DNA from: an uncultured Gammaproteobacteria bacterium | GTDB taxonomy: Bacteria; Patescibacteriota; Patescibacteriia; Magasanikbacterales; GWA2-37-8 | NCBI GenBank assembly: GCA_964511375.1 | Contig: CAZEEW010000003.1 | Coordinates: forward strand, 10,987 to 74,986 | DNA: 64,000 bases | Reading direction: 5' to 3' | Shown here: piece after piece, positions 3,457 through 54,756 of the stretch | Layout: each line of letters starts with the position of its first letter | Position numbering within the stretch: the first letter of the stretch is position 1 | The notes under the pieces: generated by a model | Databases searched by the model: none | Told to the model about the DNA's origin: nothing | Seen by the model: only the letters and a program-made list of their open reading frames with translations | Translations under genes and position numbers: made by a program

Positions 3457-4374
3457 GTGAATTGGTTTATTTTAGCCCTTTTACCTCCTGCTCTTTTGGC
3501 TGGGGTCAACTATATAGACAAGTACCTGGTTAGTAATTTTTTTAAAGAGAAAGCAACCGGGTCGCTTGCAATTTTTTCTGGTTTAGTAGCTATTTTCGTT
3601 GCAAGCATTACGGGGGTCATTAATCCAGAAATTATTTGGCAAAGCAGCTTTTTGACTGCCGGCGGTACAGTTTTAGCGGGATTGATATTATCTTTAGCTA
3701 CGCTTTTTTATTTATATGCCTTAAGGTACAACGATACTTCATTGGTTGTGCCTTACTTTCAGCTGGTAACAGTTTTTACTTATTTTTTAGGCTTGTTGTT
3801 TTTGAACGAAACATTAAATCATGGACAGTTAATAGGATCAATACTGGTGATTGGCGGAGGAATTGCTTTGGCTTTGGAAAGGGAAAATAGAAAAACTAGG
3901 TTTAAAATAAAAACTTTTCTTTTGATGCTATTGGCATCTTTTTTGATTGCTTTAAGCAATTTAATTTTTAAAAAAACCGCTTTGGAAATTGGTTATCTAG
4001 CTTCTGTATTTTGGGGTAGTATAGGAACATTCCTTTTGGGGGCAGTCTTATTCGTTTTGGTAAAAGATTTTCGTTTGCATTTTCGAAAAGTTTTAGCTTT
4101 AAAAAAGCGCTTTGTAATTGGTCTGAATTTACTCAATGAATCTTTGGTTGTATTGGCGGGATTAGTATCTAGATTAGCTGCCTTATTTATTCCCCTCGCT
4201 CTGGTTTCGGTAATAGGTAGTACACAGTCCTTTTTTTCCTTAATTTACGGCATGGGAATAACATTATTTATTCCCTATGTTGCTAACGAAAAAATTACCT
4301 TAACCCATGTAGTATATAAATTTTTGGTTGTAGCGGTAATGTTTTTAGGAGTCTACCTTTTATATTCATTTTAG
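3457..4374 (+). CDS. DMT/EamA-like polytopic membrane transporter
   Basis: 305 aa with about 10 predicted TM helices. GTG start. Confidence 0.45.
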   Translation: MNWFILALLPPALLAGVNYIDKYLVSNFFKEKATGSLAIFSGLVAIFVASITGVINPEIIWQSSFLTAGGTVLAGLILSLATLFYLYALRYNDTSLVVPYFQLVTVFTYFLGLLFLNETLNHGQLIGSILVIGGGIALALERENRKTRFKIKTFLLMLLASFLIALSNLIFKKTALEIGYLASVFWGSIGTFLLGAVLFVLVKDFRLHFRKVLALKKRFVIGLNLLNESLVVLAGLVSRLAALFIPLALVSVIGSTQSFFSLIYGMGITLFIPYVANEKITLTHVVYKFLVVAVMFLGVYLLYSF

Positions 4375-4901: not shown

Positions 4902-5732
4902 ATGTTAAATACATTAGAACAATTAAATAGGTTTTTAGAAGAAGCGGCTATCTCGGCACGTATAAATTGGGGTGTTAAGTTTTATGAACTGCGCCCCTTT
5001 TTAGTTTCAAATCTTGAAGAATTAAAACAAAAAATCAGCTCTCGTGGTTACCCCATGGAAAAGCTGGAAATATTATTGAGTGTTTTAAGAGAAGAGGAAG
5101 TCTCTGACATGGAGATCCTTAATGGATTAGAATCTTTGGAAGAGATTTTTACTTTATCTGGGGTCCAGGAAGAAAAAATTGAAAATTTTAAAAATTTATT
5201 AGGAATTTTTCGAAACCGAGTAAACAATGAAGAAAAGTTTAGGAGCTTACGGGGTAAGCTCCTAAAAAATATGAGTCCAGAAAAAAGTGCTGAATATGAT
5301 GTAAAATTGTTTAAGAACGAAGGAATGAATTATTGTTTAGTATATTACGTTTCGGTCTATAAAGCTTTGAGTGAGTTAAATACCCCTGAAGAAAAAAGGA
5401 AGTTTATTGAGGCAGAAGAAGTAAGACTGGAGAACGGTGGCTTACCGGGAATAAAGCAAGATTTTAAAAATGATGAGTCGCTAAACAAGTTTATACTTTT
5501 GATTTTGAAAGACGATTTAAGAGATAACCTAATTGATGTGTTTTATAATTGTAAAGAAACAATTTTGGGGGATGATAATCCAGAGGTAATAGAGAGAAAG
5601 TTGAAAGAGTATATTTATGAATTAATATTGGCCTTTGAAAAACAGGGAATTAAACAATTATCAAGTAAGTTTTTTTCACCTTACGGAGTTAATCCGACTT
5701 TTCAGAATTTACATCCAATTTTTCATTATTAA
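4902..5732 (+). CDS. hypothetical helical protein
   Basis: 276-aa ORF with no recognisable motif. Tightly followed by the 1029-aa ORF. Confidence 0.4.
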   Translation: MLNTLEQLNRFLEEAAISARINWGVKFYELRPFLVSNLEELKQKISSRGYPMEKLEILLSVLREEEVSDMEILNGLESLEEIFTLSGVQEEKIENFKNLLGIFRNRVNNEEKFRSLRGKLLKNMSPEKSAEYDVKLFKNEGMNYCLVYYVSVYKALSELNTPEEKRKFIEAEEVRLENGGLPGIKQDFKNDESLNKFILLILKDDLRDNLIDVFYNCKETILGDDNPEVIERKLKEYIYELILAFEKQGIKQLSSKFFSPYGVNPTFQNLHPIFHY

Positions 5733-5737
5733 TTCCT

Positions 5738-8700
5738 GTGATAGAAATAGAATCAAATCATATTGAACGTCAGCGGAAGGAAGTGCCGACGCGGACGCCA
5801 AACGAGGCGACCAGAAGACGTCGGGAGGCTTTAGAATTGACTAGGCATATTTTGGCTGTGGAGACTAACGGGATGGACGCAGGCGAATCTAAAGAGGAGC
5901 TAAAAAAACGAGTTTACGAGAAAGTTGTCCACTCCCTTACGACTGCCTCTCAGGCCAGGTTAGAAGACGCCTTGGATGAAAATAAGGAAAAAATAGTTTA
6001 TTTTATTCGAGGCGGTCGAGCAGCTCTAAATCGAGAGATTAGATACATACAAGAGGGAGAAAATTTATCAGATAATGAAAAAGAAGAGAAAATTGCTGAA
6101 CTTTACAGGGACTATGCGCATGCTAAGTTAGTAGAAAAATTGACTATTGTAAGGGTTGTTGAATTCTTATTAAAGAATATCTTGAATCCCTATGCCTCTT
6201 CTGAGGAACTGGCCGCCGTTACTGGGTCGGTTAAAAACGGTGAACATTGGACAAGTAATTTTGACCCTGATACTAATCTGGAGATGGGAATGACCGAGTT
6301 CATCTCAGAACCAAAGTTAGAAGAGATCAGGGCCGGTATACAAGTTGCATTACAGATGAGAAGTAAGATAAGAGATTTGATAGAACAAAGCAAAAGTTAC
6401 GATGGACGACCGGATGGTCGTGTGATCGTTCAGACTGTTTTTGGTTTTCAGCCCAAAGGTAGAGTTAAGGTGGTTGAAAGCTCTTTGTCTATTACCCTTT
6501 TATTTTCCGATGACAGTGATTATAGCAAGGCATGGGGTGATGAGAAAATGGCAGATTTATCTGGCGGTTTTCATAGTACGTATTTGTCTAGGGGATCAAA
6601 AAGGAGATTTGGCGATCAGTTCGACCGTAAAGATGAGAACCCAAAAGGAATAGTTAACTGCTCTAAAGGATCCGAATTTAGAGCAAGTACAGTAGCGCAT
6701 GAAAATGAACACTCTTTATATGAGATAACAATGAATAATCGTGGAAAGATAAAATATACGCTTGAAAAAGTCCTTGAGCAGATGATGGGTGCTGGTTCCG
6801 AACAGCAGGAGGTCTACGCCAGAAGAATTTATAATGAGTTTTTCTTTGAAGCCTACAGAAGATTTGTGGCTTCGTTTGCAAACGAAGCTTTGGCATATGT
6901 ATTAAACAATGAAAATGATTATAGCAATGTAGAAAAAATAGTGCAGACCAATTATGATCAGTTAACACAGACTAAATTATATTCGCACCATCATATTACC
7001 GAAGAAGCTGTAAAAGGCATAAAAGATGATATTTTATATGAGGTGGCCCGAATGAGCAAGGAACATGTAGTTGGTTCAGCTGAGAAAGAATCTGCTTTTG
7101 ATTTTTTACTGCAGAGATTAAACGAAATGGGTGGTGGAATAACTAGACAAAGTATTGAAGAGACATGCCGTTCAATTATTAGAATTATTGCTACCTTAAA
7201 ACAAAAGGGTTTTGGTAATGATTACATTCGTGCACTTTTTGCTGGTGAAAGTCCTGCTCGATGGCCGGAGATTGCCGAAAAAGTTATTAATTTTAAAAGT
7301 AATGAAGAGCAGATTAAATCGAAGGAAGCTGAGGCTCTTCACCAAGAGAAGCTTTCCGCCTGGGCTTTGATCCAGTCGATCGATTACGGCGAAGAAGAAG
7401 CTCCCTCTGCGATTCAAAATAGAGAGGATGAACCTAGAGAGGGCAGGCTTGAAATAGTTAACAGTAACGATTATGAATGGATAAGTGTACAGAGCGTAGG
7501 AACAAAAATTAAAGAAAAGAAAAAGCTTTTGCCAGCGGTAGAAGAAAAGAAATACGTAAGAGCCTGTATAGCGGCAAGAAAGGAAGGAGAGGATAAGAAG
7601 AATTTTAGCGGCGATGGTGTAGAGGTTGATAGTAAAGCGGGAGGAGAATATATTACCTTTGAAGGCGGTAGAATATTTTATGATAATGGTGACAAGATTT
7701 TAGATGACCAAAACAAAGTTGTTTTTGATTTTAACAGAAAAAACCTCCTAGGTGATAATCCTAAAAGAAGAGAATTGTTATGCACAAATAAAGGAGCAAT
7801 TGTCACTGGTAAGTTTTATGCTCCCGACGGAATAAAGAGGGTTGTGCTCAGAGAAGATGGTGAGATATTAGGAATGGAATATAAGAATGTTAAGGATTGT
7901 TTTCTGGAACAAGGTGAGCTGTTGATGTTGGTGGATACTGGTTCGGGGTCAGCTCTCATAAAAGAATCTGGTGAAGTAGTGGCAAATTTCAAAATCGATG
8001 ATAAAGAAAAAATATTTAGTGATGGTAAAAAAACTTATTTCTTTGAAGCAGGCGGGGAAGACCTCTATTTCCTCAAAGATACAAATGGGAATATTTTGGG
8101 CAAAAATCAAGGTTATACCGCAGAAGAGATCATGGCAATTGAGCCTAGTCAGTTTGATGGCGGTACGGTCTTAGTTGATTATAGCCAGCCTGACGCAAGA
8201 TATTTCACACTTTATGGTGAAGAGATCCCAACCGATACTAATAGATTTTTTGTTTATCAAGGAGACATTTATTTTAAAGAAATTTCTGGTGTTAGATATC
8301 AAAACTTAGAAGGGAAAAAAATAGGAAGAGAAGATTTTTCTGTTTTTTATCCTTATCGTCGTTTTTCTGATGGGTCTTTGGTATTTCTAGCTCGAGAAAA
8401 AGATACTGCTAATGATTTTTACAGCGATGAGCAAGGGAATGTGCTCGGTTCTCTTTTGTTGGAGAAATATGGTAAACCTAAAGATATTTTTAAAACTCAC
8501 GATGGCCAATATGTTTATTTAGTTGAGAATTCTGACAAAACACAATCATTGCGAAATGAAGGTGGAAATGAAATTTTGAGAGGAAGGTTTGAACAGTTGG
8601 TTGAAACTGATAAAGGTTGGATTTTTGGTGTGTCTGACGACAATAAAGAATCCTTTGCCGTCTTCAACGAAAAAGGAGAAAAAATTAGTGACGATTATAC

Positions 8701-8827
8701 CCCAAGCTCCGAAAATTTAATTGAATACTACGAAACAAGAGGTGGAAATATGGTGTGTAATGTTATTGGAGGAAAACTTGACGATGATGTATTTAAGGTA
8801 ATAAGAGAAAAACTAAAAGTTGGCTAA
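5738..8827 (+). CDS. large hypothetical protein with central HExxH (zincin-like) motif and C-terminal tandem ~35-45 aa repeats
   Basis: VAHENEHSLYE with downstream Glu candidates. Repeated G/D-rich units (DGxxxY/F..E.G.xLG). No signal peptide. Confidence 0.45.
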   Translation: MIEIESNHIERQRKEVPTRTPNEATRRRREALELTRHILAVETNGMDAGESKEELKKRVYEKVVHSLTTASQARLEDALDENKEKIVYFIRGGRAALNREIRYIQEGENLSDNEKEEKIAELYRDYAHAKLVEKLTIVRVVEFLLKNILNPYASSEELAAVTGSVKNGEHWTSNFDPDTNLEMGMTEFISEPKLEEIRAGIQVALQMRSKIRDLIEQSKSYDGRPDGRVIVQTVFGFQPKGRVKVVESSLSITLLFSDDSDYSKAWGDEKMADLSGGFHSTYLSRGSKRRFGDQFDRKDENPKGIVNCSKGSEFRASTVAHENEHSLYEITMNNRGKIKYTLEKVLEQMMGAGSEQQEVYARRIYNEFFFEAYRRFVASFANEALAYVLNNENDYSNVEKIVQTNYDQLTQTKLYSHHHITEEAVKGIKDDILYEVARMSKEHVVGSAEKESAFDFLLQRLNEMGGGITRQSIEETCRSIIRIIATLKQKGFGNDYIRALFAGESPARWPEIAEKVINFKSNEEQIKSKEAEALHQEKLSAWALIQSIDYGEEEAPSAIQNREDEPREGRLEIVNSNDYEWISVQSVGTKIKEKKKLLPAVEEKKYVRACIAARKEGEDKKNFSGDGVEVDSKAGGEYITFEGGRIFYDNGDKILDDQNKVVFDFNRKNLLGDNPKRRELLCTNKGAIVTGKFYAPDGIKRVVLREDGEILGMEYKNVKDCFLEQGELLMLVDTGSGSALIKESGEVVANFKIDDKEKIFSDGKKTYFFEAGGEDLYFLKDTNGNILGKNQGYTAEEIMAIEPSQFDGGTVLVDYSQPDARYFTLYGEEIPTDTNRFFVYQGDIYFKEISGVRYQNLEGKKIGREDFSVFYPYRRFSDGSLVFLAREKDTANDFYSDEQGNVLGSLLLEKYGKPKDIFKTHDGQYVYLVENSDKTQSLRNEGGNEILRGRFEQLVETDKGWIFGVSDDNKESFAVFNEKGEKISDDYTPSSENLIEYYETRGGNMVCNVIGGKLDDDVFKVIREKLKVG

Positions 8828-8878
8828 ATTAATTTTTTCTTTATATATAATCGATTTATCAGATTCTAGACCAAGCTA

Positions 8879-8907
8879 TTGACAAACAGGATGATTCATA
8901 GTAATAT
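8879..8907 (+). promoter_or_regulatory. sigma70-like promoter of rplJ-rplL
   Basis: TTGACA-17-TAATAT. Confidence 0.5.
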
Positions 8908-9043
8908 CCATTCACCATAGACAGCAGGCGGTTTGAGAAATCAAGCCTTAATTACCTGCCGAGGTGCAAAAAAGCCTTTATTAAAGGCTTCGGAGGTCGA
9001 TTTGTACTAAAAATTAGGTCTGTGGCTAACACAGATTTTTTGT
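8908..9043 (+). promoter_or_regulatory. structured 5' leader of rplJ (possible L10 autoregulatory leader)
   Basis: 135-nt untranslated leader with paired segments: cagcaggcgg/cctgccgagg and aaagccttt/aaaggcttc. Confidence 0.3.
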
Positions 9044-9568
9044 ATGGCAAAATCCAAACAACAAAAAGTAGAAACCATAGATAGCTTAGGCCAAGGTTTA
9101 AAATCCGCCAAAGCAGTGGTTTTTGCCAACTTCCAAGGTTTAAAAGTTAGCGAGGCCGAGGAATTACGCAAACTCTGCCGCAAGAACGACATCCAGGTTT
9201 TAGCTGCTAAGAAAACCCTTTTAAAGCGTGCTTTAACTGATGCTGGTCTTGAAGGTGCTGATCCAAGCGTTTTCCAAGGTGGTGTTGCGACTTTTATGGG
9301 CACGGGTGATGAAGTAGCTCCTGCGAAAGTAGTAAGCGACTTTGCTAAAACCCACGAGATCGTCTCCGTATTCGGTGGCGTACTCGAAGGAAAATTCATT
9401 GATGCCGCCATGGTAAAAAGCCTGGCTAGTCTACCTTCTAAGACTGAACTCTTGGCTAAGGTAGTTGGCTCAATTAATGCCCCAGTTTCTGGCTTTGTTA
9501 ATGTCTTAGCTGGTAACCTACGTAACTTGGTGAGTGTTCTTAATAACATTAAAGAAGCGAAAGCTTAA
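9044..9568 (+). CDS. rplJ: 50S ribosomal protein L10
   Basis: The N-terminal region is clearly L10, and gene order with rplL supports it. Confidence 0.9.
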   Translation: MAKSKQQKVETIDSLGQGLKSAKAVVFANFQGLKVSEAEELRKLCRKNDIQVLAAKKTLLKRALTDAGLEGADPSVFQGGVATFMGTGDEVAPAKVVSDFAKTHEIVSVFGGVLEGKFIDAAMVKSLASLPSKTELLAKVVGSINAPVSGFVNVLAGNLRNLVSVLNNIKEAKA

Positions 9569-9589
9569 TAATTAGTTTAACTTAATACT

Positions 9590-9997
9590 ATGAGTGACGA
9601 ACAAAAAGTTGTTGAGGTCCCAGAGAAATTCAAGGCCCTCGTTGAACAAATTGAAAAGATGTCTGTTTTGGACTTAGCTGAACTTGTTAAAATTTTAGAA
9701 GACAAGTTTGGTGTTTCTGCTGCTGCTCCAGCTATGATGATGGCTGCTGCTCCAGCTGCTGGTGGTGCTGCCGCTGCCGAAGAGAAGACCGAATTCAACG
9801 TTGAATTAGCTGATGCTGGTGCTAACAAGATCAATGTGATCAAGGCTGTAAAAGAAATCACTGGTCTTGGTTTAGCTGATGCTAAGGCTTTGGTTGACGG
9901 AGCTCCAAAGATGGTCAAGGAAGGCGTTAAGAAAGAAGAGGCTGAAGAAATGAAGAAAAAGATCGAAGAAGCCGGTGGTAAAGTCAACTTAAAGTAA
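9590..9997 (+). CDS. rplL: 50S ribosomal protein L7/L12
   Basis: Ala-rich hinge and the C-terminal [28 protein letters not shown]...EAGGKV motif. Confidence 0.95.
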
Positions 9998-10011
9998 TTG
10001 CATTACTTAAT

Positions 10012-10042
10012 AAAAAATCCTCCCATTCGGAGGATTTTTTTG
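10012..10042. terminator. bidirectional rho-independent terminator between rplL and the convergent gene
   Basis: aatcctcc-cattc-ggaggatt flanked by an A-run and a T-run. Confidence 0.7.
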
Positions 10043-10046
10043 TAGG

Positions 10047-12362
10047 TTATTTCCAATTTAATTTTAGTAAGCGGTTCTTGTCCAGAGTATAAAGGGTTCG
10101 GTTGGCTTCGTCGACAACTAGCCCGGTAGGGAAGGTAAATTGTTTGCTGGTTAATTGTTGTTTAACGCGTCCATCTTTTTCTAAAATTACAATTCTTTTT
10201 TTAGATGGTTCAATAAGATATAAATAGCTAAGGTCGTTATATGACCATATTTTTTGTGGGGCGTGTAGAGCAGGCTCTAGACCTTCAATAGCAAAATTTT
10301 GTTTCTGACCTTTAGTGAACTTTTGGACCTCCCCGGTAGATTGTAAGACAAAAATGTCGCCATCAATTGTCAAATCAATCGCCTGGCTAAAATTCGCCGC
10401 TCCACTTGTTAGCCAGTTTGTTCCTTTCGCAAATCCATTTTTGATACTGTCATGCTTGTAAATTAAACCACTAGTTTTGTCTACGGTATATAACCGTCGG
10501 TTATATACTACCAATCCTCCGAGCTCAGCTGAAGTTTCGCCAAAACTAATTTCAATTTTTTCTAAGGTGTTATTCCCTGGAGTAAAACGTACCAATTCTT
10601 TATTACTGCTAACAAATAAGGCATAATCATTTTCTTTGGGTGAACCACCTAAGCAGAAACCAGAAGAAACTGGGGCAGTAACCACTTCTCCAGTTTTAGT
10701 TAATTCGTCATAAACAAACAGTTTGGGGCTGGAAGAGTTAAAACTAATTATTTTACTGCCAATTTTAACAATTTGTTCAAGGGGTTGGTCAAGAGTTTGG
10801 TTTGACCAATTGTACATTTCTTCGGTGTTTGCTACTACTAATTTTCTTAACTTAAAACTTAAATTTTCTAATTCAGCGTCTAGTTCGCGGCAGGTTTCTG
10901 AATTTTTTTCTTCGTCACAAGCCAGTGTTAAGAAGATTTCTCTAGCCCCTTGTAGCTCTTTTAGGGCGCCAGTTTGGTCGTTATATATTAAGGCGCTTTC
11001 CGCTGAGTCTTTTTTGTTTCTAATCAGTGTTGTTTTTTCTTGGAATACAGCAGCCTCTGCTTCTCGAGAGCTCTTTTTTTCGGTGTAAACAATATTGCCA
11101 GCAAATATTAGGATGGCTGCTATAGCTAAGGTAAATAGTATTTTAGTCAAAAGCGGAAGGTCTTTAACACTACGAACATAGTGGTCGAATTGTCTTTTAT
11201 AATTTTCTCCCACTTCACGGCGACGTCCTTTAATATTGGTGGTAAGATAAAAGAGGTTAATTAACTGGTGGCTAATACCTAGTAAAATGGCCCAAGTAAA
11301 CATCGCCAACCACAATAAGACTTTGCCGATAATTTTCACGCCTTTTATAAAATAATTAAGATATTTGGTCCATTCCGGCAAGGTAGCGATTTTACTTCCT
11401 GGCAGATTGCGGTGGTTTGTCGGAACTAGGGGACGACGATGTGTAGATTGTATATCAGCTGCTGGAGTAGTTTCCGGTCGCAAACGTTCTTCGATTATTT
11501 CGACCGTTTTTTCTTCGGTGGTCTCTCCATCATTCCAGACATTTTTTAGTTTTTCGTTTAGACGCGGTAAGAGAGAAGAAGAGAGGGTCTCGGAGGTGTC
11601 TTTCTCTGTTCTAAACAAGTGGTTTAGTGATTTAGCACCCGATCCTTTGGTAATTGGGGATTTCTTAGGTACCGGTGTTTGTTTATCTTCAATAGTTGGA
11701 ACATAGTTAATGATCAAACCGCCGAAAGAATTACCGTTTTTAATCTCGGTTAGTACTTTTTGTAGATGTTCAGCGCTTAACCTCGGTGGTCGAGAAGTGA
11801 GTAATTTACTTAAACGGTCAGCATCAAAAGTCTCAGTAATGTGCGGGGTCCCGACAAATAAAAAGTCGTTAGGGCTGATCTTTCCCTGCACTACTTGAGA
11901 AAATAATTGGTTATCCGAGGGTTCGTCATTGCTCTCCGGGTTAATGAGTTCCATGACTTTAAATAGGCTATCTTTAGTTTTATAGAACAAATTCAAGGTT
12001 GGTTGGCCATAATAGCTGAAAACAATTTCGGGTTGTCTAATCACCCCAGCTAAACAGTGAATTTCAAGGTTCTCCGCTGTTAAGGCAAAGCCCGAATGGT
12101 TGACTTTTTCCAACACAACTTCAAAAGCCGATTTGCCTAATTCGTCTTCAGTAACATAATAATCATTTTCTATCTGATCAATTATCCCTTGTAATTGGAT
12201 TATCTGTTCTTTGGAGGCGCCATTCAGTTCACAGACAGCAAAAAAATAGCCCTTTTCCCGCTCTTCCGGAGTGGACGGCTCAGTAATGTGTAAGAGTACG
12301 TGTGAACGCTCGGATTCGCCTCCTTCAACAAAAAATTCGTGGATCTGTAATTTGTGCTCCAT
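10047..12362 (-). CDS. membrane protein with two central TM helices and C-terminal beta-propeller-like (NHL/YVTN-type) repeats
   Basis: ORF trimmed to ATG 12362, which has a -10-like tatact upstream. The longer 12629 start overlaps the divergent gene. Repeated strand motifs LYTVD, LYLIE and LYTLD. Confidence 0.5.
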   Translation of the reverse strand: MEHKLQIHEFFVEGGESERSHVLLHITEPSTPEEREKGYFFAVCELNGASKEQIIQLQGIIDQIENDYYVTEDELGKSAFEVVLEKVNHSGFALTAENLEIHCLAGVIRQPEIVFSYYGQPTLNLFYKTKDSLFKVMELINPESNDEPSDNQLFSQVVQGKISPNDFLFVGTPHITETFDADRLSKLLTSRPPRLSAEHLQKVLTEIKNGNSFGGLIINYVPTIEDKQTPVPKKSPITKGSGAKSLNHLFRTEKDTSETLSSSLLPRLNEKLKNVWNDGETTEEKTVEIIEERLRPETTPAADIQSTHRRPLVPTNHRNLPGSKIATLPEWTKYLNYFIKGVKIIGKVLLWLAMFTWAILLGISHQLINLFYLTTNIKGRRREVGENYKRQFDHYVRSVKDLPLLTKILFTLAIAAILIFAGNIVYTEKKSSREAEAAVFQEKTTLIRNKKDSAESALIYNDQTGALKELQGAREIFLTLACDEEKNSETCRELDAELENLSFKLRKLVVANTEEMYNWSNQTLDQPLEQIVKIGSKIISFNSSSPKLFVYDELTKTGEVVTAPVSSGFCLGGSPKENDYALFVSSNKELVRFTPGNNTLEKIEISFGETSAELGGLVVYNRRLYTVDKTSGLIYKHDSIKNGFAKGTNWLTSGAANFSQAIDLTIDGDIFVLQSTGEVQKFTKGQKQNFAIEGLEPALHAPQKIWSYNDLSYLYLIEPSKKRIVILEKDGRVKQQLTSKQFTFPTGLVVDEANRTLYTLDKNRLLKLNWK

Positions 12363-12468
12363 AGTTTTGACTTTTGTGACTCTTAATAGTATACTACAAA
12401 GGCCAAAAAAAGTCCAAACCTTTGCCAAATTAACAAGTAATTTGGTAAGGAAAAAAAGGATAATAAAT

Positions 12469-13065
12469 ATGCTTGAACACCTTTTTGGTTCGAAAACCAG
12501 ACTTAAGCTTTTGCAGCTATTTTTTCGCCATCCCGATCGGGCTTTTTTTGTTCGCGAAATTTGTCGAATGGTGGGTTCGCATTTAAATGCTGTTCGTCGC
12601 GAACTTTCTAACTTAGAACATCTTGGCATTATTGCTGTTACCGATAAACAGGAAGTGCCAGATTATGACCAAGGCAGTGAACGGGCTAAGTACTATATTC
12701 TCCAAAAGGACTTTTTATTGTTCGGTGAATTAAAGTCCCTTTTGCTTAAAGCGCAGGTCATGGAAGAACAAGCCTTTGTCTCTGATTTAAAGTCTAAGGG
12801 TGGGTTGATCAAACTTTTTGTTCTTACGGGGATATTCACTGACGAACCACAAACCAACACGGATATTTTGTTGGTAGGAAAGGTTAAACCAGTTAGTACC
12901 TCTAAAATTATCCGCGACTACGAGAAGTCCATTGATCGGCCGATCCGTTACACAATTATGACCGAAGAGGAGTATAACGAGCGTAAAGAAATTGGTGATA
13001 AATTTTTATATAGCATCCTCGAATCCAAGCACATCGTCATTTATGACGAAGTCAACGTAATGTAG
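12469..13065 (+). CDS. winged-helix DNA-binding protein (ArsR-like HTH N-terminus)
   Basis: Start trimmed to ATG 12469, preceded by aaaggat. HTH-like segment REICRMVGSHLNAVRRELSNLEHLGII. Confidence 0.4.
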   Translation: MLEHLFGSKTRLKLLQLFFRHPDRAFFVREICRMVGSHLNAVRRELSNLEHLGIIAVTDKQEVPDYDQGSERAKYYILQKDFLLFGELKSLLLKAQVMEEQAFVSDLKSKGGLIKLFVLTGIFTDEPQTNTDILLVGKVKPVSTSKIIRDYEKSIDRPIRYTIMTEEEYNERKEIGDKFLYSILESKHIVIYDEVNVM

Positions 13066-13075
13066 GTCATGAATT

Positions 13076-13453
13076 ATGTATTTAGGAATCGATAACAGTG
13101 AAGAGGAAAAAATTATTTTTTTTAAATGGGAAAATAATGATTTTTTGATTGAAGAAAAGCCAATGCACGAGTCTCGCGACCTGCTTTTAAGTTTACGTTC
13201 GCTTCTAACAGAAAACAACCTCTCTTTTCAGGACCTGGAAGGCTTAGCTGTTCGGACGGGAGCGGGAAAATTTACTAGCACAAGAGTAGCGGTAACGGTT
13301 GTTAATACTCTGGGTTTTGCGCTTAAAATACCGGTCGTAGGAGTGGGTGTTATAACCAAAGATACGGTGGAAAAAATCAGAGAAGCCTCTCCTGGGATTT
13401 ATGTTAGCGCCACTTATAGTGGTGAACCAAATATTGGTAAAAAGAAAGAGTAA
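13076..13453 (+). CDS. tsaB: TsaB/YeaZ-like protein, N-terminal domain only
   Basis: LGIDNS...GAGKFTSTRVAVTVVNTLGFALKIPVVGV matches the TsaB/Kae1 N-lobe. Only 125 aa. Confidence 0.5.
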   Translation: MYLGIDNSEEEKIIFFKWENNDFLIEEKPMHESRDLLLSLRSLLTENNLSFQDLEGLAVRTGAGKFTSTRVAVTVVNTLGFALKIPVVGVGVITKDTVEKIREASPGIYVSATYSGEPNIGKKKE

Positions 13454-13456
13454 ATT

Positions 13457-14956
13457 ATGCTTTCGGATTATCAGCGGTATCGAATTTATGAAACATTGCC
13501 TGGTTTAAGCATCTGGCTCACGCTTATTGTTGGTGTAGTTCTGTCTTTTGTAAAACCGCTTTGGATGATTTACGCCGTTTTAGTTTTTGATGTCTATTGG
13601 GTGCTGCGGGTAATTTATTTTTCTTTTTATTTAGTAATGTCTTGGCGCCGTTTTCGCAAATCTATTGCTATAAACTGGTGGAAAAGGCTAACAAAAGAAT
13701 TTCCGAATTGGCGGCAAAAGAAGTGTGTGGTATTTCTTCCGCTATATAACGAAGAATGGAGTATTGTTAAAGCAACTTTGGACGGGTTATCTAACGCGAA
13801 CTATCCTACGCAAGAAATATATGTTGTTTTGTCTGGTGAAGAAAGAAAGTTAGCTCACTGGCTAGAATTACAAAGTAGGATTAAGGAAAATTATTCTGGT
13901 ATATTTGCCGATCTAATATTTTATACTCATCCATCGGGATTGGCTGGGGAAATTCCTGGCAAAGGATCCAATATACATAACGCTGAATGGGAATTTAAAA
14001 AGTACGCTGACGAACGCAATTGGGATTATGGAGATATAGTTATCTCTGTTTTTGACATCGACACTGTTGTCCATAAAGAGTACTTTGCTCATTTAATGTA
14101 CATGTATTTAAGTCATCCTAATCCAACCCGAAGCTCTTTCCAGCCTGTTACTTTATACAATAATAATCTATGGGATTCACCGGCGCCGCTAAGAATTATG
14201 GCCTTCGGTACTAGTTTTTGGATGTTATTTAGCTTGGCGAGATTAGACAACATGGTAACTTTTTCATCACACAGTATGAGTTTTAAGGCCGTGATGGATT
14301 GTGGTGGTCACGCTAAAGATATTGTGAGTGAAGATTCGCGTATTTTTTATCAATGCTGGCTCCGATATAATGGTGAATATGAAGTCTCGCCCTTGTACAT
14401 TCCAGTATCCATGGATACTGTAAATGATGTTAGTGTTTGGAAAAGTCTAAAAAATTTATATTTACAACAACGTCGCTGGGCTTGGGGAGCTGAGAATTTG
14501 TCCTACTTACTATGGGAACTACGCCGCCGCCCAGAAATCCCTTGGACGAAAAAATTAAAAGCGATTTTTATAGAATGGGAAGGTAAGTGGAGTTGGGGAG
14601 TTGTTGCTATCATGATTACCGTACTTGGGCGTTTGCCGCTCTGGTTTGCTGGCGAAGAGCTACGCCAAAGTGCTTTATTTTTTAACACTCCGCATGTTCT
14701 CGAGATTCTTATGACTTTGGCTATGATTGGTTTATTTACTTCAGCCATCATGAGTATGTTGATTTTGCCAACTAGACCGCAGGGTTATTCTTCTCACCGC
14801 TATCTTTATATGATATTGCAGTGGTTGCTTTTGCCGATCTCGTTGGTATTTTTTTCCGCCATTCCTTGTATTGATGCTGTCACCCATTTAATGTTTGGTA
14901 ACTACTTGGGTTTCAATGTTTCAACTAAAAAACGTTTACAACCTAATTATTCATAA
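13457..14956 (+). CDS. family 2 glycosyltransferase, membrane-embedded processive type (cellulose/chitin-synthase-like)
   Basis: QQRRWAWG (QxxRW) motif and D-rich catalytic motifs. Multiple TM helices on both sides. Confidence 0.7.
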   Translation: MLSDYQRYRIYETLPGLSIWLTLIVGVVLSFVKPLWMIYAVLVFDVYWVLRVIYFSFYLVMSWRRFRKSIAINWWKRLTKEFPNWRQKKCVVFLPLYNEEWSIVKATLDGLSNANYPTQEIYVVLSGEERKLAHWLELQSRIKENYSGIFADLIFYTHPSGLAGEIPGKGSNIHNAEWEFKKYADERNWDYGDIVISVFDIDTVVHKEYFAHLMYMYLSHPNPTRSSFQPVTLYNNNLWDSPAPLRIMAFGTSFWMLFSLARLDNMVTFSSHSMSFKAVMDCGGHAKDIVSEDSRIFYQCWLRYNGEYEVSPLYIPVSMDTVNDVSVWKSLKNLYLQQRRWAWGAENLSYLLWELRRRPEIPWTKKLKAIFIEWEGKWSWGVVAIMITVLGRLPLWFAGEELRQSALFFNTPHVLEILMTLAMIGLFTSAIMSMLILPTRPQGYSSHRYLYMILQWLLLPISLVFFSAIPCIDAVTHLMFGNYLGFNVSTKKRLQPNYS

Positions 14957-14962
14957 AAACAT

Positions 14963-16387
14963 ATGCGAACTTTAAAAATAGTTCTCATCATTATTGTGGG
15001 CATTATCCTTCTCGGTGCGGGAACTGGGTATTGGTGGTATAAAAATGGCGGCATGGCCAACTGGTTTGTTAACCGAGCGGGTGAAAAAATCCTCGGCAGC
15101 ACGACCGATGTCCCTTTGTTGCATGAAGCTTTAGGTTTCACTAAGCCTCAGACTTATCTTGTTCTTCTAATGAATAATACGGAAATGCGACCCGGCGGTG
15201 GTTTCCTTGGTTCTTACGCTGTACTCCGGGTTGATCACGGTCGCCCCCAAATACTAAAAGTAGAAGGAACAGAAATATTAGATAATTCTGCCCCTGCCGA
15301 TTTCCAAGTTGAGCCTCCGCGTGAAATGAAGGAGCTGATTAAAGTCAAAAGGTGGAATTTCCGAGATAGCAATTGGTATCCAGATTTTACATTGTCAGCG
15401 GCTAAAGGGTTAGAGCTTTACAAACTGGAAAAGGGTTTGGCAGCTAACGACATTGATGGAGTAATTGGTTTTACGCCGACCCTAATTGAGGATTTACTAC
15501 GTATTACCGGGCCAGTTAATGTGGATGGTGATGAATTTAATGCTAACAACTTTTTAGAAAAAATTGAATTCGAAGTCGAATATGGTTATGCGGAAAGAGG
15601 TATTGAGTTTCGTGACCGCAAACAAATGCTTTCTAAGTTGAGCTATGAAGTGTTAAGAAAAGCTGTACGGGAAATGTATCGCCAGTGGCCAGAGTATTTG
15701 AGCCTCATTGAGAAAATGATTAAAGAAAAACAGGTGGTTGCTTATTCTTTGAATCCAGAGTTACAAAAATTTATTATGGCCAAGGGTTTAGCTGGTGAGA
15801 TGAAAGATTCTGAAGGAGATTATTTACTTTGGGCTGACGCGAACCTTGGATCAATGAAAACTGATTTAGCACTAGCCCGCACTTTAAGTTATGAACTGAA
15901 ACCAGATAAAAATGGTTACCTGGCTAAGGTTACGATGCATTATGATCATAATGGTGTTTACGATTGGCGGACTACTCGTTATCAGACATTCGCACGATTG
16001 TATGTCCCAAAAGGGAGCAAGGTACTAGCAGTAAATGGTCAAAGTGTAGAAAAAGGCATCAAAGATCCTTTCTTCTCAACTGGTGAGGAAAAAGGTAGAA
16101 CTTGGTTTGGTGCTTTTCTAGTCATTGACCCTGGTAAAGAGAAGGATTTAACTTTTGAATACTTGTTGCCAGAGTCTCTGGTACAAAAAATAAAGTCTGG
16201 TGAATATCAGCTTTTGGCACAAAAACAAATCGGTACGCCAGCTAACCAATTAAAGTTGAATTTAGATTTTGGCCGCAGCGTCTATTTTGCTGAACCAGGT
16301 GAGAGTAAAGAATTTTTTGGAGATAAAAAATATTCTCTAACCACTGATCTTAGAGAAGATCGTGTGTTTACCGTAAAAACTAAATAA
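14963..16387 (+). CDS. membrane-anchored protein, DUF4012-like
   Basis: N-terminal TM, then MRPGGGFLGSYAVL, which is characteristic of a CPR-enriched uncharacterised family. Confidence 0.4.
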   Translation: MRTLKIVLIIIVGIILLGAGTGYWWYKNGGMANWFVNRAGEKILGSTTDVPLLHEALGFTKPQTYLVLLMNNTEMRPGGGFLGSYAVLRVDHGRPQILKVEGTEILDNSAPADFQVEPPREMKELIKVKRWNFRDSNWYPDFTLSAAKGLELYKLEKGLAANDIDGVIGFTPTLIEDLLRITGPVNVDGDEFNANNFLEKIEFEVEYGYAERGIEFRDRKQMLSKLSYEVLRKAVREMYRQWPEYLSLIEKMIKEKQVVAYSLNPELQKFIMAKGLAGEMKDSEGDYLLWADANLGSMKTDLALARTLSYELKPDKNGYLAKVTMHYDHNGVYDWRTTRYQTFARLYVPKGSKVLAVNGQSVEKGIKDPFFSTGEEKGRTWFGAFLVIDPGKEKDLTFEYLLPESLVQKIKSGEYQLLAQKQIGTPANQLKLNLDFGRSVYFAEPGESKEFFGDKKYSLTTDLREDRVFTVKTK

Positions 16388-16390
16388 TCG

Positions 16391-17410
16391 TTGATCTCTG
16401 TTATGTTTATTAAAAAAATTGGTATTGATCTAGGCACAACTAATGTCTTGGTGTATGTACCACGCAAAGGTATTGTTATTAATGAACCCAGTGTCGTAGC
16501 TGTTTCTAAGGTGGATGGTAAGGTATTAGCGGTCGGACTCGAGGCAAAAGATATGATTGGCCGTACCCCGGATAGTATTATTGCCGAGCGACCTCTAAAA
16601 GAAGGAGTTATCGCTAATTACCATACAACCGAAGCCATGATCCGCTATTTTATTAACAAGGCTTTAGGTGGTATGCGTTTATTCCGCCCGGAAGTCATGG
16701 TCGCTGTTCCGGCAGGAATCACATCGACGGAGCGTCGTGCGGTTATTGATGCCACAATCGCGGCTGGTGCTAAAGCGGCATATATTATTAAAGAGCCGTT
16801 AGTCGCGGCCATTGGCGCAGATATTCCAATTGGTTCAGCTTCTGGTCACATGATCATTGATATTGGTGGTGGCACAGCAGAAATCGCAGTTATTTCTTTA
16901 GGTGGAATTGTGTCCTGCGGCTCGGCGAGAATTGGTGGTAACAAATTTGACCGCTCAATTGCTGAATATGTTCGTCATAAATATAACTTGGCTGTCGGAG
17001 AAAGAACAGCCGAAGAAATTAAAATTGGTATTGGCTCGGCGATGTATATGGAAAAGCCTTTGACCATGGATATTAAAGGAAGAGACATGATTACTGGTTT
17101 ACCCCGTACGCTCAATGTCAGCTCAGATGACACAACAGAAGCCCTTCAACATGATTTGGAAATGTTGATTGAAGCGGTTAAAGAAGTACTACAGAAAACT
17201 CCACCCGAACTTTCGGCCGATGTCATTGACAAAGGCATTATCCTGTCTGGGGGATCGGCACAACTCAGAAATCTTGATGAATTAGTCGCCCAGGCAACTG
17301 GTGTTGCCACTTATGTTGCTGAAGAGCCTCTGCTTTGTGTCGCCAAAGGTACAGGTATTGCCCTCGAGAACCTCGAGAGTTACAAGCGGAGTATTTTGGC
17401 AACGAAGTAG
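16391..17410 (+). CDS. mreB: rod shape-determining protein MreB
   Basis: IGIDLGTTNVLVYV, actin-fold phosphate motifs and DIGGGTAEIAV. Confidence 0.9.
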   Translation: MISVMFIKKIGIDLGTTNVLVYVPRKGIVINEPSVVAVSKVDGKVLAVGLEAKDMIGRTPDSIIAERPLKEGVIANYHTTEAMIRYFINKALGGMRLFRPEVMVAVPAGITSTERRAVIDATIAAGAKAAYIIKEPLVAAIGADIPIGSASGHMIIDIGGGTAEIAVISLGGIVSCGSARIGGNKFDRSIAEYVRHKYNLAVGERTAEEIKIGIGSAMYMEKPLTMDIKGRDMITGLPRTLNVSSDDTTEALQHDLEMLIEAVKEVLQKTPPELSADVIDKGIILSGGSAQLRNLDELVAQATGVATYVAEEPLLCVAKGTGIALENLESYKRSILATK

Positions 17411-17434
17411 GAGTAAACAAATAGAAAAGAAACA

Positions 17435-17466
17435 AAAACCCAGCGCTAAGTGCACTGGGTTTTATT
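17435..17466. terminator. bidirectional terminator (mreB / islet-1 gene)
   Basis: aaaacccag-N11-ctgggtttt followed by a T-run. Confidence 0.6.
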
Positions 17467-17482
17467 GTGTTCCGTGACTTTA

Positions 17483-17554
17483 CGCTTCGCAGTTGATCTG
17501 AAATAGCAACTGTTACTATCTCAGACCGACACTGCGAAGCGCCGGCTATTTCAG
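17483..17554 (-). repeat. interleaved inverted repeats (pseudoknot-like or alternative hairpins) in the 3' region of the islet-1 gene
   Basis: cgcttcgcagt (17483-93) pairs with actgcgaagcg (17531-41). ctgaaatagc (17498-507) pairs with gctatttcag (17545-54). The order is A-B-A'-B'. B' overlaps the stop codon. Confidence 0.5.
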
Positions 17555-17769
17555 GATTTCTTCTTGAGACGGCGCTGGATGCGCCACAGGTAGGTGTATC
17601 CGATGGCGAGCAGGAGTCCCAGGACGATCTCGGTGAACGCCTCGACCGGCGTGTCTTTGATGAAGAGGCGGATGAGCCCCGTGACCACCATGATGTAGCC
17701 CAGGATCACGAACACCGGGACGAATGTATCGAAGAGATTCAGGATCATCATCTTGAACTGCTGAAACAT
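17551..17769 (-). CDS. 72-aa two-TM small membrane protein encoded in GC-rich islet 1
   Basis: GC3 near 90% against an AT-rich host. The RBS is gggaggc, 7 nt before the ATG. Promoter TTGACA-17-TATACT. Confidence 0.6.
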   Translation of the reverse strand: MFQQFKMMILNLFDTFVPVFVILGYIMVVTGLIRLFIKDTPVEAFTEIVLGLLLAIGYTYLWRIQRRLKKKS

Positions 17770-17819
17770 TTCTTTGCCTCCCTGCGCCGCGCAGGCGCTC
17801 CGTTGTCAGGGAACCAGTG

Positions 17820-17848
17820 AGTATAGCAAAGAGAGAGAGAGTTGTCAA
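17820..17848 (-). promoter_or_regulatory. sigma70-like promoter for the islet-1 gene, with a (CT)6 dinucleotide repeat in the spacer
   Basis: On the - strand: TTGACA-actctctctctctttgc-TATACT. The 13-mer tctttgctatact is shared with the helicase promoter at 28175. Confidence 0.5.
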
Positions 17849-17871
17849 GAACTGGGGTGTGCGGTAAAATG
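17843..17871 (+). promoter_or_regulatory. divergent promoter for the GT1 gene
   Basis: TTGTCA-17-TAAAAT, followed by the ggagggg RBS and ATG 17880. Confidence 0.4.
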
Positions 17872-17879
17872 GAGGGGTT

Positions 17880-18989
17880 ATGATTATCGGCATTGAAGTT
17901 GATCACGCCAACAAAGAACCACGAACTGGAGTTGAAGAAGTGTGTTGGCAAATAATTCAAAATTTAAAAAAAATTGTACCGAGCGAGGTGCAAGTCATTT
18001 TGTATTCCCGGAGTCCATTGAGAGGGGAACTGGGTATGTTGCCAACTAACTGGGAATCTAAAGTTCTTACCTGGTCACTTAGAAAGTTGTGGAGCCAAAC
18101 TCGTTTGGCGTATGAATTATGGAAAAACCCACCAGACATATATTTTGCTCCCGGACAGTTGCTGCCTTTTTTTTACACACCAAAGAATACCGTTACCTTT
18201 TTACACGACAGTGCTTTCCGGGTTTTTCCTGAGGCATATAACTTCTGGGGCAGGCAGTATCTAAAATTAATGGATCGACATATCTTTAAATCCAGTAAGT
18301 ATGTTGTAACTTCTTCAGAATTTAATCGTAAAGAAGTGAGAAGATTGTATGGTGAAAGTGCGGTTCAGAAGGTAAAAGTCATACCCCTCGGATTTTCTAG
18401 CGAATTTTCTGTTATCCCGAGAGATAACACTGTCTTAGATAAATATAATTTGAAGAAACCATACATATTATATGTCGGTCGGGTTGAAGAAAAGAAAAAC
18501 ATTGTGCGGCTTATTCAAGCTTTTAATGGTGTTAGGAAGACTATAGATGTTCAGTTGGTTTTAATCGGTAAACCAGGTGTGGGCTATGAAAAAATTAAAA
18601 AAGAAATTGAAGCCAGTCTTTTTAAAGAAGATATCCACGAATTAGGTTTTGTTAAAAAGGAAGATCTTTCAGCATTTTACTATGGCGCCTGGGTATTTGC
18701 CTTCCCATCGTTATATGAAGGTTTCGGTTTGCCGGTATTAGAAGCATTTGCATCTCAAATACCAGTCTTAACTTCTAAAGGTACAGGTGCTATCGAAGTT
18801 GCAGGCGATGCTGCGGTTATTGTTGACCCAATGAGTGTGGAAGAAATAACTAAGGGGATAGATAAGTTATTGAATGATGGCAATTTTAGAAAAGATTTAG
18901 TCTTAAAGGGCAAGGAACGTTTGTGTTATTACTCCTGGGAGAAGACTTCGGTTGGTATTTGGGAAATTTTACGCAATTGTCAGGAATAA
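17880..18989 (+). CDS. glycosyltransferase family 1 (GT4-type)
   Basis: EGFGLPVLEAFASQIPVLTS and the E-x7-E region. Confidence 0.75.
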   Translation: MIIGIEVDHANKEPRTGVEEVCWQIIQNLKKIVPSEVQVILYSRSPLRGELGMLPTNWESKVLTWSLRKLWSQTRLAYELWKNPPDIYFAPGQLLPFFYTPKNTVTFLHDSAFRVFPEAYNFWGRQYLKLMDRHIFKSSKYVVTSSEFNRKEVRRLYGESAVQKVKVIPLGFSSEFSVIPRDNTVLDKYNLKKPYILYVGRVEEKKNIVRLIQAFNGVRKTIDVQLVLIGKPGVGYEKIKKEIEASLFKEDIHELGFVKKEDLSAFYYGAWVFAFPSLYEGFGLPVLEAFASQIPVLTSKGTGAIEVAGDAAVIVDPMSVEEITKGIDKLLNDGNFRKDLVLKGKERLCYYSWEKTSVGIWEILRNCQE

Positions 18990-32107: not shown

Positions 32108-32205
32108 TTGAATTGGAGGGTAGACAATGTGGAATGGACCATATTGCTTTTTTATTTACATTATGTTTAAATTTTTCTATCTTCAACCACTAGAAGGGGG
32201 TGGTT

Positions 32206-32421
32206 GTGAAAGATGAAGCCCGGCTTCCGAACCTCGGAAGCGAAGCGGCTCGGTTTTTCCTAGCCTTGGGGAAGGTTGCTGATATCCCAGTCAGCACAGC
32301 GGTCTCCACGGCCGGGGAAGAGAGCGCCTACTCTTTCGGGCATTGGAAGTGCCCGATTTGTGGGCGCAAGAACTTCTCGGTAGGCACGTGCCCGCAGTGC
32401 GGCACGCGACGGCCCCTCTGA
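32206..32421 (+). CDS. 71-aa zinc-ribbon protein encoded in GC-rich islet 2
   Basis: CPICG-x11-CPQCG. GC-rich codons. GTG start after aaggggg. Flanked by the 11-bp direct repeat gaagggggtgg. Confidence 0.5.
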   Translation: MKDEARLPNLGSEAARFFLALGKVADIPVSTAVSTAGEESAYSFGHWKCPICGRKNFSVGTCPQCGTRRPL

Positions 32422-32586
32422 AGGGGGTGGGGAGAGATCATGAAGCTGCCTTACTAGGGTGGGCGAGCACTCAGCAGGACTCCGCTCAACCACCTGTTGG
32501 GTTTCTGTGTATTAGGAACCCAGCAGGGGGAGATGGGCGGAGTTTTGTGTTGACTAAAAATATATTTTAGTATTTAATGGTCTGGT

Positions 32587-46541: not shown

Positions 46542-46555
46542 ACACATAAACAAAA

Positions 46556-46581
46556 ATATCCACCAAAGTGGATATTTTTAG
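46556..46581 (+). terminator. terminator after 45126-46541 gene
   Basis: atatccac-caaa-gtggatat plus a T-run. Confidence 0.6.
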
Positions 46582-46589
46582 TAAACACA

Positions 46590-46646
46590 CTTCTCGGTAC
46601 TCTAGAAAATACATAGACATATATTCTCTAGGGCACGACCGAGAAG
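46590..46646. repeat. GC-clamped long hairpin with AT-rich interior at 3' end of islet-3 gene
   Basis: Outer stem cttctcggt/accgagaag (9 bp) enclosing about 39 nt. The internal ctctag direct repeat is AT-rich. Confidence 0.45.
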
Positions 46647-46693
46647 CGGATGCACCCCTGGCGTGGGGCGCCATGGCAGGGTGTTCGGGGGGG

Positions 46694-46843
46694 CTAGCGG
46701 ACGATCCAGCAGATGAAACGCTGGTCGTCCGGGTTGGAGTAACAGGGCTTCAGGTCCGCCTTGAGGGCGAACCAGGAGATGACGAGAAATGTCAGGACAG
46801 CGAACGCGAGGCCCGCCGCCCTCTTCCAAGTGAACGCCGCCAC
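46694..46843 (-). CDS. 49-aa single-TM small protein encoded in GC-rich islet 3 (GTG start)
   Basis: Not in the ORF track. RBS aggagg, 5 nt before the GTG. GC3 about 87%. Sequence MAAFTWKRAAGLAFAVLTFLVISWFALKADLKPCYSNPDDQRFICWIVR. Confidence 0.45.
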   Translation of the reverse strand: MAAFTWKRAAGLAFAVLTFLVISWFALKADLKPCYSNPDDQRFICWIVR

Positions 46844-47102
46844 CGGAACCTCCTACTGATTTTTCTCAACTGCAACGGGAAGAGCGAGCCCTTCGTCTCT
46901 TCCGGCAGATGCAGTCGTTCCTGTATCTTCTCCGGCCGCTTCGGTAGAAGCCGCCAGATGATTCCCATGAGAACCGCGATCCCGATACCCAACCCCATTC
47001 TTACCTCCTGAGTTGGGTTGGTGCGCCTAGACGTGAACTTCACGCCAGACAACGACTAAACATACTCTTTTTGTCTGGTTTTGTCAATGTGATTAATGTG
47101 CA

Positions 47103-47129
47103 CAAAAAACTCGGGTGTTAACCCGAGTT
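47103..47129 (-). terminator. terminator of - strand membrane-protein gene
   Basis: aactcgggt-gtta-acccgagtt with a T-run on the - strand. Confidence 0.6.
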
Positions 47130-47145
47130 GTATCTATTCTTTTGT

Positions 47146-50064: not shown

Positions 50065-50288
50065 AATAAAAAATCTCTGTCCAAGCAGAGAAAAAAGATC
50101 TAAAAACAGAGTTCCTGCTCGGGATTTAAAGATATTTGAAGACCGGACTTGTCCCGAATTTGCTCGGGCCTTACCGTTGCGGCACAGTGGAGGAATTACA
50201 CCTCACTTCCACAAATATCTTTTTAAATTGTTAGTATAGAGAGATTAACATTTAGGAAACGGACTGTCAAACAGGAGTTATCAACAGG

Positions 50289-54530: not shown

Positions 54531-54614
54531 ACTTTTGTTAGTTTAAAAGTTATATCTTTATCTTCTCGGATCGTGCATATACTTGTCAAAGGGACAAAAC
54601 TTTTTAATACAAAA

Positions 54615-54677: not shown

Positions 54678-54756
54678 GCTTCTGCGAAAGGAGCGATGAG
54701 GCCGCCCGGCACGGTGCCGGGGGCGGGGATAGGGGACAGTGCGGCTTAGACGCCGG

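Follow-up and report, generated by a model that had tools for sequence, protein, structure and literature searches.

Accessory genes without homologues at chromosomal hot spots are the closest known kind to the element analyzed here, a GC-rich intergenic islet (islet 1) that carries a 72-codon open reading frame (ORF) between mreB and the gene of a family-4 glycosyltransferase (GT4). It lies in a 64-kb stretch of DNA with a GC content of 40%, referred to below as the window, from the genome of an uncultured Candidatus Magasanikbacteria member (Patescibacteria, candidate phyla radiation, CPR) of groundwater and episymbiont type. Other described systems resemble parts of the islet. Long 3' stem-loops, such as the stabilizers of the REP type and those of lambda sib retroregulation, stabilize mRNA or serve as RNase III sites. 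Class II holins, of similar size to the islet product, have two transmembrane (TM) helices and a basic C-terminal tail, and in AT-rich genomes, islands of high GC content are often the sites of structural RNAs. Immunity proteins of the Imm17 family have two TM helices, occur in heterogeneous polyimmunity loci, and possibly block toxin uptake at the membrane (PMC3482391), and orphan immunity genes are known for fast evolution and horizontal movement (PMC12247911).

As with hot-spot genes, the flanks of islet 1 (mreB and GT4) are conserved, and its content is variable, deviant in composition, and devoid of homologues. Unlike them, it is a tiny insert with a single small ORF (about 360-600 nt); integrase, tRNA, and direct repeats are all lacking, and the exchanged middle lies between a conserved promoter and a conserved terminator at the edges. 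With the stem-loops of the REP and lambda sib types it shares a 27-bp imperfect double-stranded hairpin between the stop codon and the terminator, which is strand-specific through G.U pairs and kept in relatives. This hairpin, however, occurs once instead of as a dispersed repeat, and no read-through logic is apparent, with only the convergent mreB downstream on the islet strand. Integron cassettes likewise exchange a short ORF with an imperfect palindrome behind a fixed promoter region, but islet 1 has its own promoter, and no integrase or recombinase is found among its neighbours. An attC site was considered and rejected: the palindrome ends CGCTTCGCAGT and ACTGCGAAGCG lack the RYYYAAC/GTTRRRY (R''/R') cores. 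A general literature search for GC-rich small-ORF islets in Patescibacteria or Magasanikbacteria returned nothing relevant. We think it fairly probable that islet 1 represents an accessory mini-gene specific to this lineage, located at an insertion hot spot, the mreB–GT4 junction.

A small gene with non-host codon usage

The 72-codon ORF is a real gene, with a strong coding signal and a codon usage that is not that of the host. GC at its three codon positions is 0.51, 0.27, and 0.86; third-position GC (GC3) is 0.34-0.39 in the host, and the long host ORFs of the window lie within 0.25-0.49 throughout, the single long ORF above this range (0.59) being a spurious frame within another GC-rich islet. 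Calculated on host codon usage, its codon adaptation index is 0.39 vs 0.64-0.71 for host genes, so the foreign codon usage described in an earlier, sequence-only reading of this DNA is borne out. A Shine-Dalgarno (SD) sequence, GGGAGG, ends 7 nt upstream of the ATG. Recoding of UGA was considered and dropped; TGA stops 6 of the 53 long host ORFs.

AlphaFold2, run on the single sequence, predicts a helical hairpin with confidence (pLDDT, the predicted local distance difference test, 88.7) with helices at residues 2-37 and 41-71 joined by the loop KDTPVE. The Kyte-Doolittle profile with a 19-residue window peaks at 2.44 and 1.55, the second helix being borderline hydrophobic. These predictions agree with the small two-TM membrane protein proposed earlier, and the product is probably an orphan helical-hairpin membrane protein.

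Homologues, for which the sequence-only reading had recommended a search, were not found in protein, six-frame, family, or fold collections. Neither a word-indexed search of 5.8 billion proteins nor a full HMMER search of 1.84 billion representatives returned any; six-frame pattern scans of JGI metagenomes and IMG/VR, which reach close relatives only, were empty, as was tblastn against plasmids and phages. No family was matched in Pfam, PHROGs, NCBIfam, or PADLOC, the best PHROG match (E = 0.01) being to a family of unknown function, and Foldseek gave no fold homologue in the PDB or BFVD (best BFVD match an unnamed protein, E = 0.2).

The 72-aa protein is absent from protein databases because gene callers annotate the wrong frame. 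The call on the Logan contig is a 100-aa ORF in another frame (17546-17848, minus strand) that begins at the TTG of the -35 box and whose GC values of about 0.88/0.51/0.28 at the three codon positions are a wrong-frame signature. The collection of 5.8 billion proteins contains this product as a singleton, and an 87-kb NCBI contig is a further source of it. The sister species B and C, introduced below, are likewise miscalled, with calls of 75 and 76 aa beginning in the leader. In GC-rich islets of this kind, gene callers thus settle on a wrong frame, the 100-aa public product of islet 1 being an artefact, and likely real small CPR proteins are missing from protein databases, where homology searches are blind to them.

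The two predicted helices and the basic tail correspond to the class II holin layout of two TM domains and a charged C-terminal tail. On this basis the product could be holin-like, or another lysis or membrane protein of phage origin that a mobile element left behind; its size would also agree, and the N-terminus M1...K6-M7-M8 is loosely like a dual-start motif. No second SD precedes M7/M8, however, and the several kb around the ORF contain neither an endolysin gene nor an integrase or any other phage gene, the neighbours by Pfam being mreB, GT4, a DUF4012 gene, and holB (DNA polymerase III delta'). The lack of a PHROG holin match, the empty phage and IMG/VR searches, and the weak BFVD match also speak against a holin, which we regard as extremely improbable.

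Islet 1 is native DNA, neither an assembly nor a benchmark artefact, because an independent Logan assembly (SRR5011273) is 100% identical to the window over 6403-18495, all 469 nt of the islet included, and the islet of species B stands at the same place on 13 contigs. A planted or chimeric sequence was dropped from consideration in view of this identical assembly. The islet DNA gave 0 matches in plasmid and phage collections, which argues against vector contamination.

Promoter, leader and 3' repeats

The small gene is preceded by a match to the extended -10 format of sigma-70 promoters (TTGACA, 17 nt, TGnTATAAT), in which 11 of 12 hexamer positions agree with the consensus and the TG extension is present. 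The promoter had been called a perfect TTGACA-17-TATACT; the hexamers and the 17-nt spacer are there as described, and one position departs from the consensus. Sites with at least 11/12 matches number 8 in the window vs 2.4 +/- 1.4 in shuffles. Since such sites are over-represented and 6 of the 8 carry TG, the islet promoter appears to be of the host's own strong-promoter type.

The leader contains the inverted repeat CCTGCGC/GCGCAGG (17795-17789/17787-17781), whose second arm overlaps the SD (17782-17777) by 2 nt. Of the hairpin fused to the ribosome-binding site in the sequence-only reading, the arms and this overlap stand; a 7-bp stem would close on a 1-nt loop, the centre base (g on the minus strand), which is impossible, and the real stem has 5-6 bp. 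According to the fold prediction, the 5'-terminal UUCCCU of the leader can pair with the SD as an alternative to the hairpin stem. The SD is predicted to be mostly paired, with P(unpaired) of its core G residues at most 0.05 for transcription starts at 17813-17815, and the predicted cost of opening it is about 7.5 kcal/mol vs 2.4-6.2 kcal/mol for four host genes and 10.6 kcal/mol for secA.

Two perfect inverted repeats, one of 11 nt (17483-17493/17531-17541) and one of 10 nt that covers the stop codon at 17551-17553 (17498-17507/17545-17554), are mutually interleaved in the 3' region. Their presence and order had been described correctly and are not random: among 5000 dinucleotide shuffles of the islet, none gave an interleaved pair and 5 gave at least two perfect repeats of at least 10 nt. 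The accompanying statement that they can form only a pseudoknot or mutually exclusive hairpins does not survive, because it missed a third copy, Y2 (CTGAGATAGT, 17524-17515, minus strand). Y2 is an 8/10 direct repeat of the stop-codon element Y1 (CTGAAATAGC), sits directly upstream of their common partner Y' (GCTATTTCAG, 17507-17498), and pairs with it. At minimum energy, the 3' region is predicted to fold into a nested bipartite hairpin of 27 bp, with -40.3 kcal/mol vs -21.0 kcal/mol when Y1:Y' pairing is enforced, a preference of about 19 kcal/mol; the equilibrium probability of Y1:Y' is about 1e-13, and the stop-codon repeat stays unpaired. Both interleaved repeats are thus predicted to belong to one nested hairpin with one spare arm over the stop codon. 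Considered by itself, islet 1 would add one orphan to the small membrane proteins of variable loci, and its "pseudoknot" would be a long hairpin of the ordinary kind.

The hairpin is -27.2 kcal/mol on the plus strand, 13 kcal/mol weaker than on the minus strand, with three G.U pairs in the inner stem; it therefore acts in the small-gene transcript. In all three species the minus-strand form is the more stable one, and between B and C all 25 pairs are kept, with one compensatory (double) change, two one-sided changes, and no broken pair.

These energies bear directly on the proposal that an H-type pseudoknot, or mutually exclusive hairpins over the stop codon, controls the translation or stability of a toxic peptide, in the manner of a type I toxin. 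Non-random repeats, one of them over the stop codon, a predicted sequestered SD, and a small hydrophobic product would fit it, and when the full-length transcript is folded, its 5' end, UUCCCUGAC, is paired in the minimum-energy structure with GUCACGGAA, located between the hairpin and the terminator, which loosely recalls the fold-back of hok in the hok/sok system. The fold-back is not seen in B or C. Pseudoknot initiation carries a textbook penalty of about 9.6 kcal/mol; with this penalty, a rough estimate for both stems from duplex energies with the initiation terms removed is about -26 kcal/mol. In the pseudoknot, stems of 11 and 10 bp would be bridged by linkers of just 3 and 4 nt, the middle loop having 23 nt, and since Y' adjoins Y2, co-transcriptional pairing with Y2 would be expected first. 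Species B and C keep the nested bipartite hairpin only, with no copy at the stop codon. As for the toxin, a consensus scan of 17411-17800 found no plus-strand promoter-like site with at least 9/12 matches that could serve an antisense RNA, none of the four family collections yielded a toxin family, and the product, with 72 aa and two helices, departs from the usual format of type I toxins (single-TM, usually <60 aa). Neither a switch nor a toxin finds support in these data, and we judge this explanation very unlikely. Also rejected was a long-range fold closing the coding sequence; the 10/12 start–stop complementarities (pairs I4, I5, and I7) are unused in the minimum-energy fold.

The hairpin is followed by a GC-rich stem and a T-run with the tail TGTTTCTTTT, as in an intrinsic terminator, and an A-run ahead of the stem lets it act from the plus strand too, in accordance with the shared bidirectional terminator of the sequence-only reading. 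The tail is homologous in B and C, the observed alignment scores being reached by 0/500 and 3/500 shuffles.

The full-length transcript folds better than shuffles (z = -5.6), and the insert of species C is an array of strong hairpins (z = -8.2), so the islet might be read as a structured non-coding RNA in which the 72-codon ORF arose by accident in GC-rich sequence. The excess structure, however, comes from the 3' hairpin and terminator (z = -9.2), and within the coding sequence no unusual structure is predicted (z = +0.15). The 3-base periodicity of GC would be unexpected for an RNA gene, a strong SD stands ahead of the ATG, and Rfam finds nothing in the islet at the gathering level or at E up to 10. 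A non-coding RNA is, in our estimation, highly improbable.

The mreB–GT4 slot in related genomes

Among 80 related loci surveyed at this junction, GT4 in many cases follows mreB on the same strand after an AT-rich spacer of 1-92 nt, often with a palindrome. The searched collections contain only two closer relatives of the window genome (A): species B (GT4 71% and MreB 96% identical to the window proteins; its contigs come from three sources, ENA, JGI, and Logan) and species C (GT4 69% identical). In both, the genome has a GC content of about 44% and the mreB–GT4 junction contains a GC-rich islet, 615 nt long in B and 547 nt long in C. The genes around it are 76-86% identical between B and C, the 5' 113 nt of the islets, with the promoter and leader hairpins, 82%, and the 3' 130 nt, with the bipartite hairpin and terminator, 86%; the islet middles are unalignable in any frame, with alignment scores equal to those of shuffles. 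Islet 1 has in common with these two only the 56 nt beside GT4 (93% identity to B; 89% over 38 nt to C) and the T-rich terminator tail, and its layout matches theirs: a hairpin before the SD, a small ORF, the bipartite hairpin, and the terminator. Homology of the coding parts of A, B, and C in another frame was rejected, as tblastx and shuffle-tested local alignments show none. The best ORFs would encode 108 aa in B (GC3 0.76) and 85 aa in C (GC3 0.79), and neither has a family match or a relative in IMG/VR. The middle of the C islet (locus L096, 3619-3876, minus strand) is an array of near-perfect GC-rich hairpins that can also be read as the 85-aa ORF, of the two-TM type; it may be coding, a structured RNA, or both.

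The -10 element of the GT4 promoter-like site ends 9 nt before the GT4 ATG, so that the GT4 mRNA is predicted to be almost leaderless despite the GGAGGGG in between; the arrangement is kept in B and C. On the minus strand, the promoter spacer is 17 nt in the window, 15 nt in B, and 13 nt in C, the differences being whole CT units, which could represent a phase-variable or a species-specific on/off setting. No variation in (CT)n length was seen among the available contigs.

More distant relatives in which the gap is wider have other genes in the same slot. Locus L034 has a 71-aa two-TM protein (5053-5268, plus strand) that is a member of Pfam Imm17 (PF15562, 43.5 bits vs a cut-off of 25). Locus L025 (5009-5433) has a gene for a four-helix bundle of the 23S_rRNA_IVP family, with one half of a long palindrome on either side, as though the gene had entered a hairpin loop; L024 has a methyltransferase gene, and L014, L015, and L066 have reverse-strand GC3-rich genes without a family match. 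Because such varied and unrelated genes occupy the slot across relatives, the junction appears to be a recurrent landing site, or insertion hot spot, for accessory genes, and across the class it would make a convenient marker locus for accessory-gene turnover.

Overall, these data support the reading of islet 1 as a lineage-specific accessory mini-gene at this hot spot. Its coding segment would have come from a GC-rich donor or been swapped in. The host-type extended -10 promoter would drive a leftward mRNA of about 390 nt whose translation would be damped by SD pairing, and the 3' stem-loop and terminator would define and protect the transcript end, shielding it from convergent mreB transcription. 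The terminator would also separate GT4 from mreB transcription, and we infer that GT4, isolated by the islet in this way, is transcribed from a promoter of its own at the edge of the islet. The gene is real, an orphan, and probably foreign, and our best guess for the protein is a dispensable, niche-specific, horizontally acquired membrane factor.

Several points weigh against this reading. The clade comparison comprises three genomes only, A, B, and C. In B and C the minus-strand promoter has a shortened spacer and a poor -10, which may leave the unit silent in these species. Given its strong structure, the insert of C may be non-coding, and "different small proteins in one slot" is for this reason firm only as "different GC-rich inserts". 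The leader fold is no better than that of shuffles (z = -0.76). The spare copy Y1, perfect over 10 nt, has no counterpart in B or C and is not accounted for by this reading, and about 3% of islet shuffles contain one perfect 10-mer inverted repeat by chance. The wrong-frame calls weaken both negatives from the protein databases (5.8 billion and 1.84 billion sequences), and the case for horizontal transfer comes from composition alone, with no donor or homologue found.

A wider version of the accessory mini-gene reading is possible, though we consider it doubtful. The clade would maintain a fixed "expression slot", with divergent promoters at one edge and the 3' stem-loop and terminator at the other, into which unrelated GC3-rich orphan mini-genes are repeatedly swapped by no recognizable recombinase. 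Four such modules, each with its own promoter, long 3' hairpin, and terminator, would then lie within 64 kb and represent an undescribed class of CPR small-gene cassettes, possibly captured from GC-rich hosts or neighbours. A conserved frame of promoter and terminator around exchanged GC-rich content is uncommon, and there is no recombinase to explain the swap. The GC3-rich small ORFs and long 3' hairpins of the window's other three islets leave room for this version.

With respect to function, the Imm17 occupant of L034 suggests an immunity-like or exclusion-like role as the most plausible specific one. As an orphan two-TM factor, obtained from a GC-rich host or neighbour, the 72-aa protein would then block a toxin that acts on the membrane, or a phage. 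It is small, two-helical, solitary, variable, and looks horizontally acquired, as do two-TM immunity proteins of the Imm17 and CdiI types and orphan immunity genes; the foreign composition and the difference in islet content between sister species agree with this, and such a role would explain the turnover of slot content between species. Unlike Imm17 members, however, it lacks the WxW/R motif, with KDTPVE as its loop. PF15562 is not among its matches at E up to 1, and BLASTP gives no alignment to the L034 protein. No toxin gene or polyimmunity array is nearby, the gene standing singly between mreB and GT4, and the case depends on one analogous slot occupant. As with class II holins and type I toxins, the likeness to two-TM immunity proteins is one of format only. 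We therefore hold this specific role to be unlikely, even as a form of the accessory mini-gene that we favour.

Feature coordinates and other islets of the window

The coordinates of islet 1 and its features are given in Table 1. The flanking genes, identified by Pfam, are MreB (16391-17410, plus strand) and GT4 (17880-18989, plus strand). In a collection with one genome per species, the closest MreB genes are at most 89% identical to that of the window and come from Candidatus Magasanikbacteria and related Patescibacteria.

Table 1. Positions of islet 1 and its features in the window, with the counterparts of the promoter spacer in related loci.
Feature	Position	Strand	Remarks
Whole islet 1	17411-17879		469-nt GC-rich gap between mreB and GT4; junction gap mostly 1-92 nt in related genomes
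-35 hexamer TTGACA	17843-17848	-	Consensus scan; back to back with the GT4 -35 TTGTCA (17842-17847, +)
Promoter spacer, 17 nt with (CT)n tract	17826-17842	-	TG extension at 17828-17827, within the final bases
-10 hexamer TATACT	17820-17825	-	Appears of the same type as host strong promoters
Predicted 5' leader	17770-17813	-	Hairpin arms and SD; start placed from the -10 position
ORF, 72 aa and TGA stop	17551-17769	-	Two-helix, probably two-TM, protein; basic tail RIQRRLKKKS
Y1 CTGAAATAGC, spare copy of inner-stem 5' arm	17545-17554	-	Over the stop codon; unpaired in the predicted fold
Bipartite 3' stem-loop	17482-17542	-	Outer stem 17542-17531/17493-17482, 12 bp; inner stem 17527-17513/17509-17495, 15 bp
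Intrinsic terminator	17425-17463		12-bp stem 17463-17435, A-run before, T-run after; shared with convergent mreB
GT4 promoter-like site TTGTCA-17-TAAAAT (17842-17870), then GGAGGGG	17842-17879	+	GT4 ATG at 17880; conserved in B and C
(CT)n promoter spacer in relatives	L090 ~3950-3965; L096 ~3952-3965		Window counterpart 17826-17842

Islet 1 is one of only four GC-rich intergenic gaps within the window. The other three (32108-32586, 46542-47145, and 54531-55111) have 52-54% GC overall and locally up to 79%, and show no sequence similarity to islet 1. Their small ORFs, none with a family match, have GC3 values of 0.69 (32200-32421, plus strand, with a zinc-ribbon motif), 0.88 (46694-46843, minus strand), and 0.95 (54757-54939, minus strand), and, as in islet 1, a long bipartite hairpin stands at the 3' end of islets 3 and 4. 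Several mini-genes of 52-79% GC, with GC3 values reaching 0.95, thus occur in a 40%-GC genome of episymbiont type; should hosts or neighbours be their source, they would directly trace a flow of DNA into CPR cells.

The Logan contigs of two samples end inside the GT4 gene (window 18079 and 18466-18495), which suggests strain-level variation of GT4. Rfam assigns ordinary features elsewhere in the window: an AdoCbl riboswitch (50078-50234, minus strand, 64.7 bits), a ribosomal L10 leader (8897-9051, plus strand, 51 bits), and five tRNAs.

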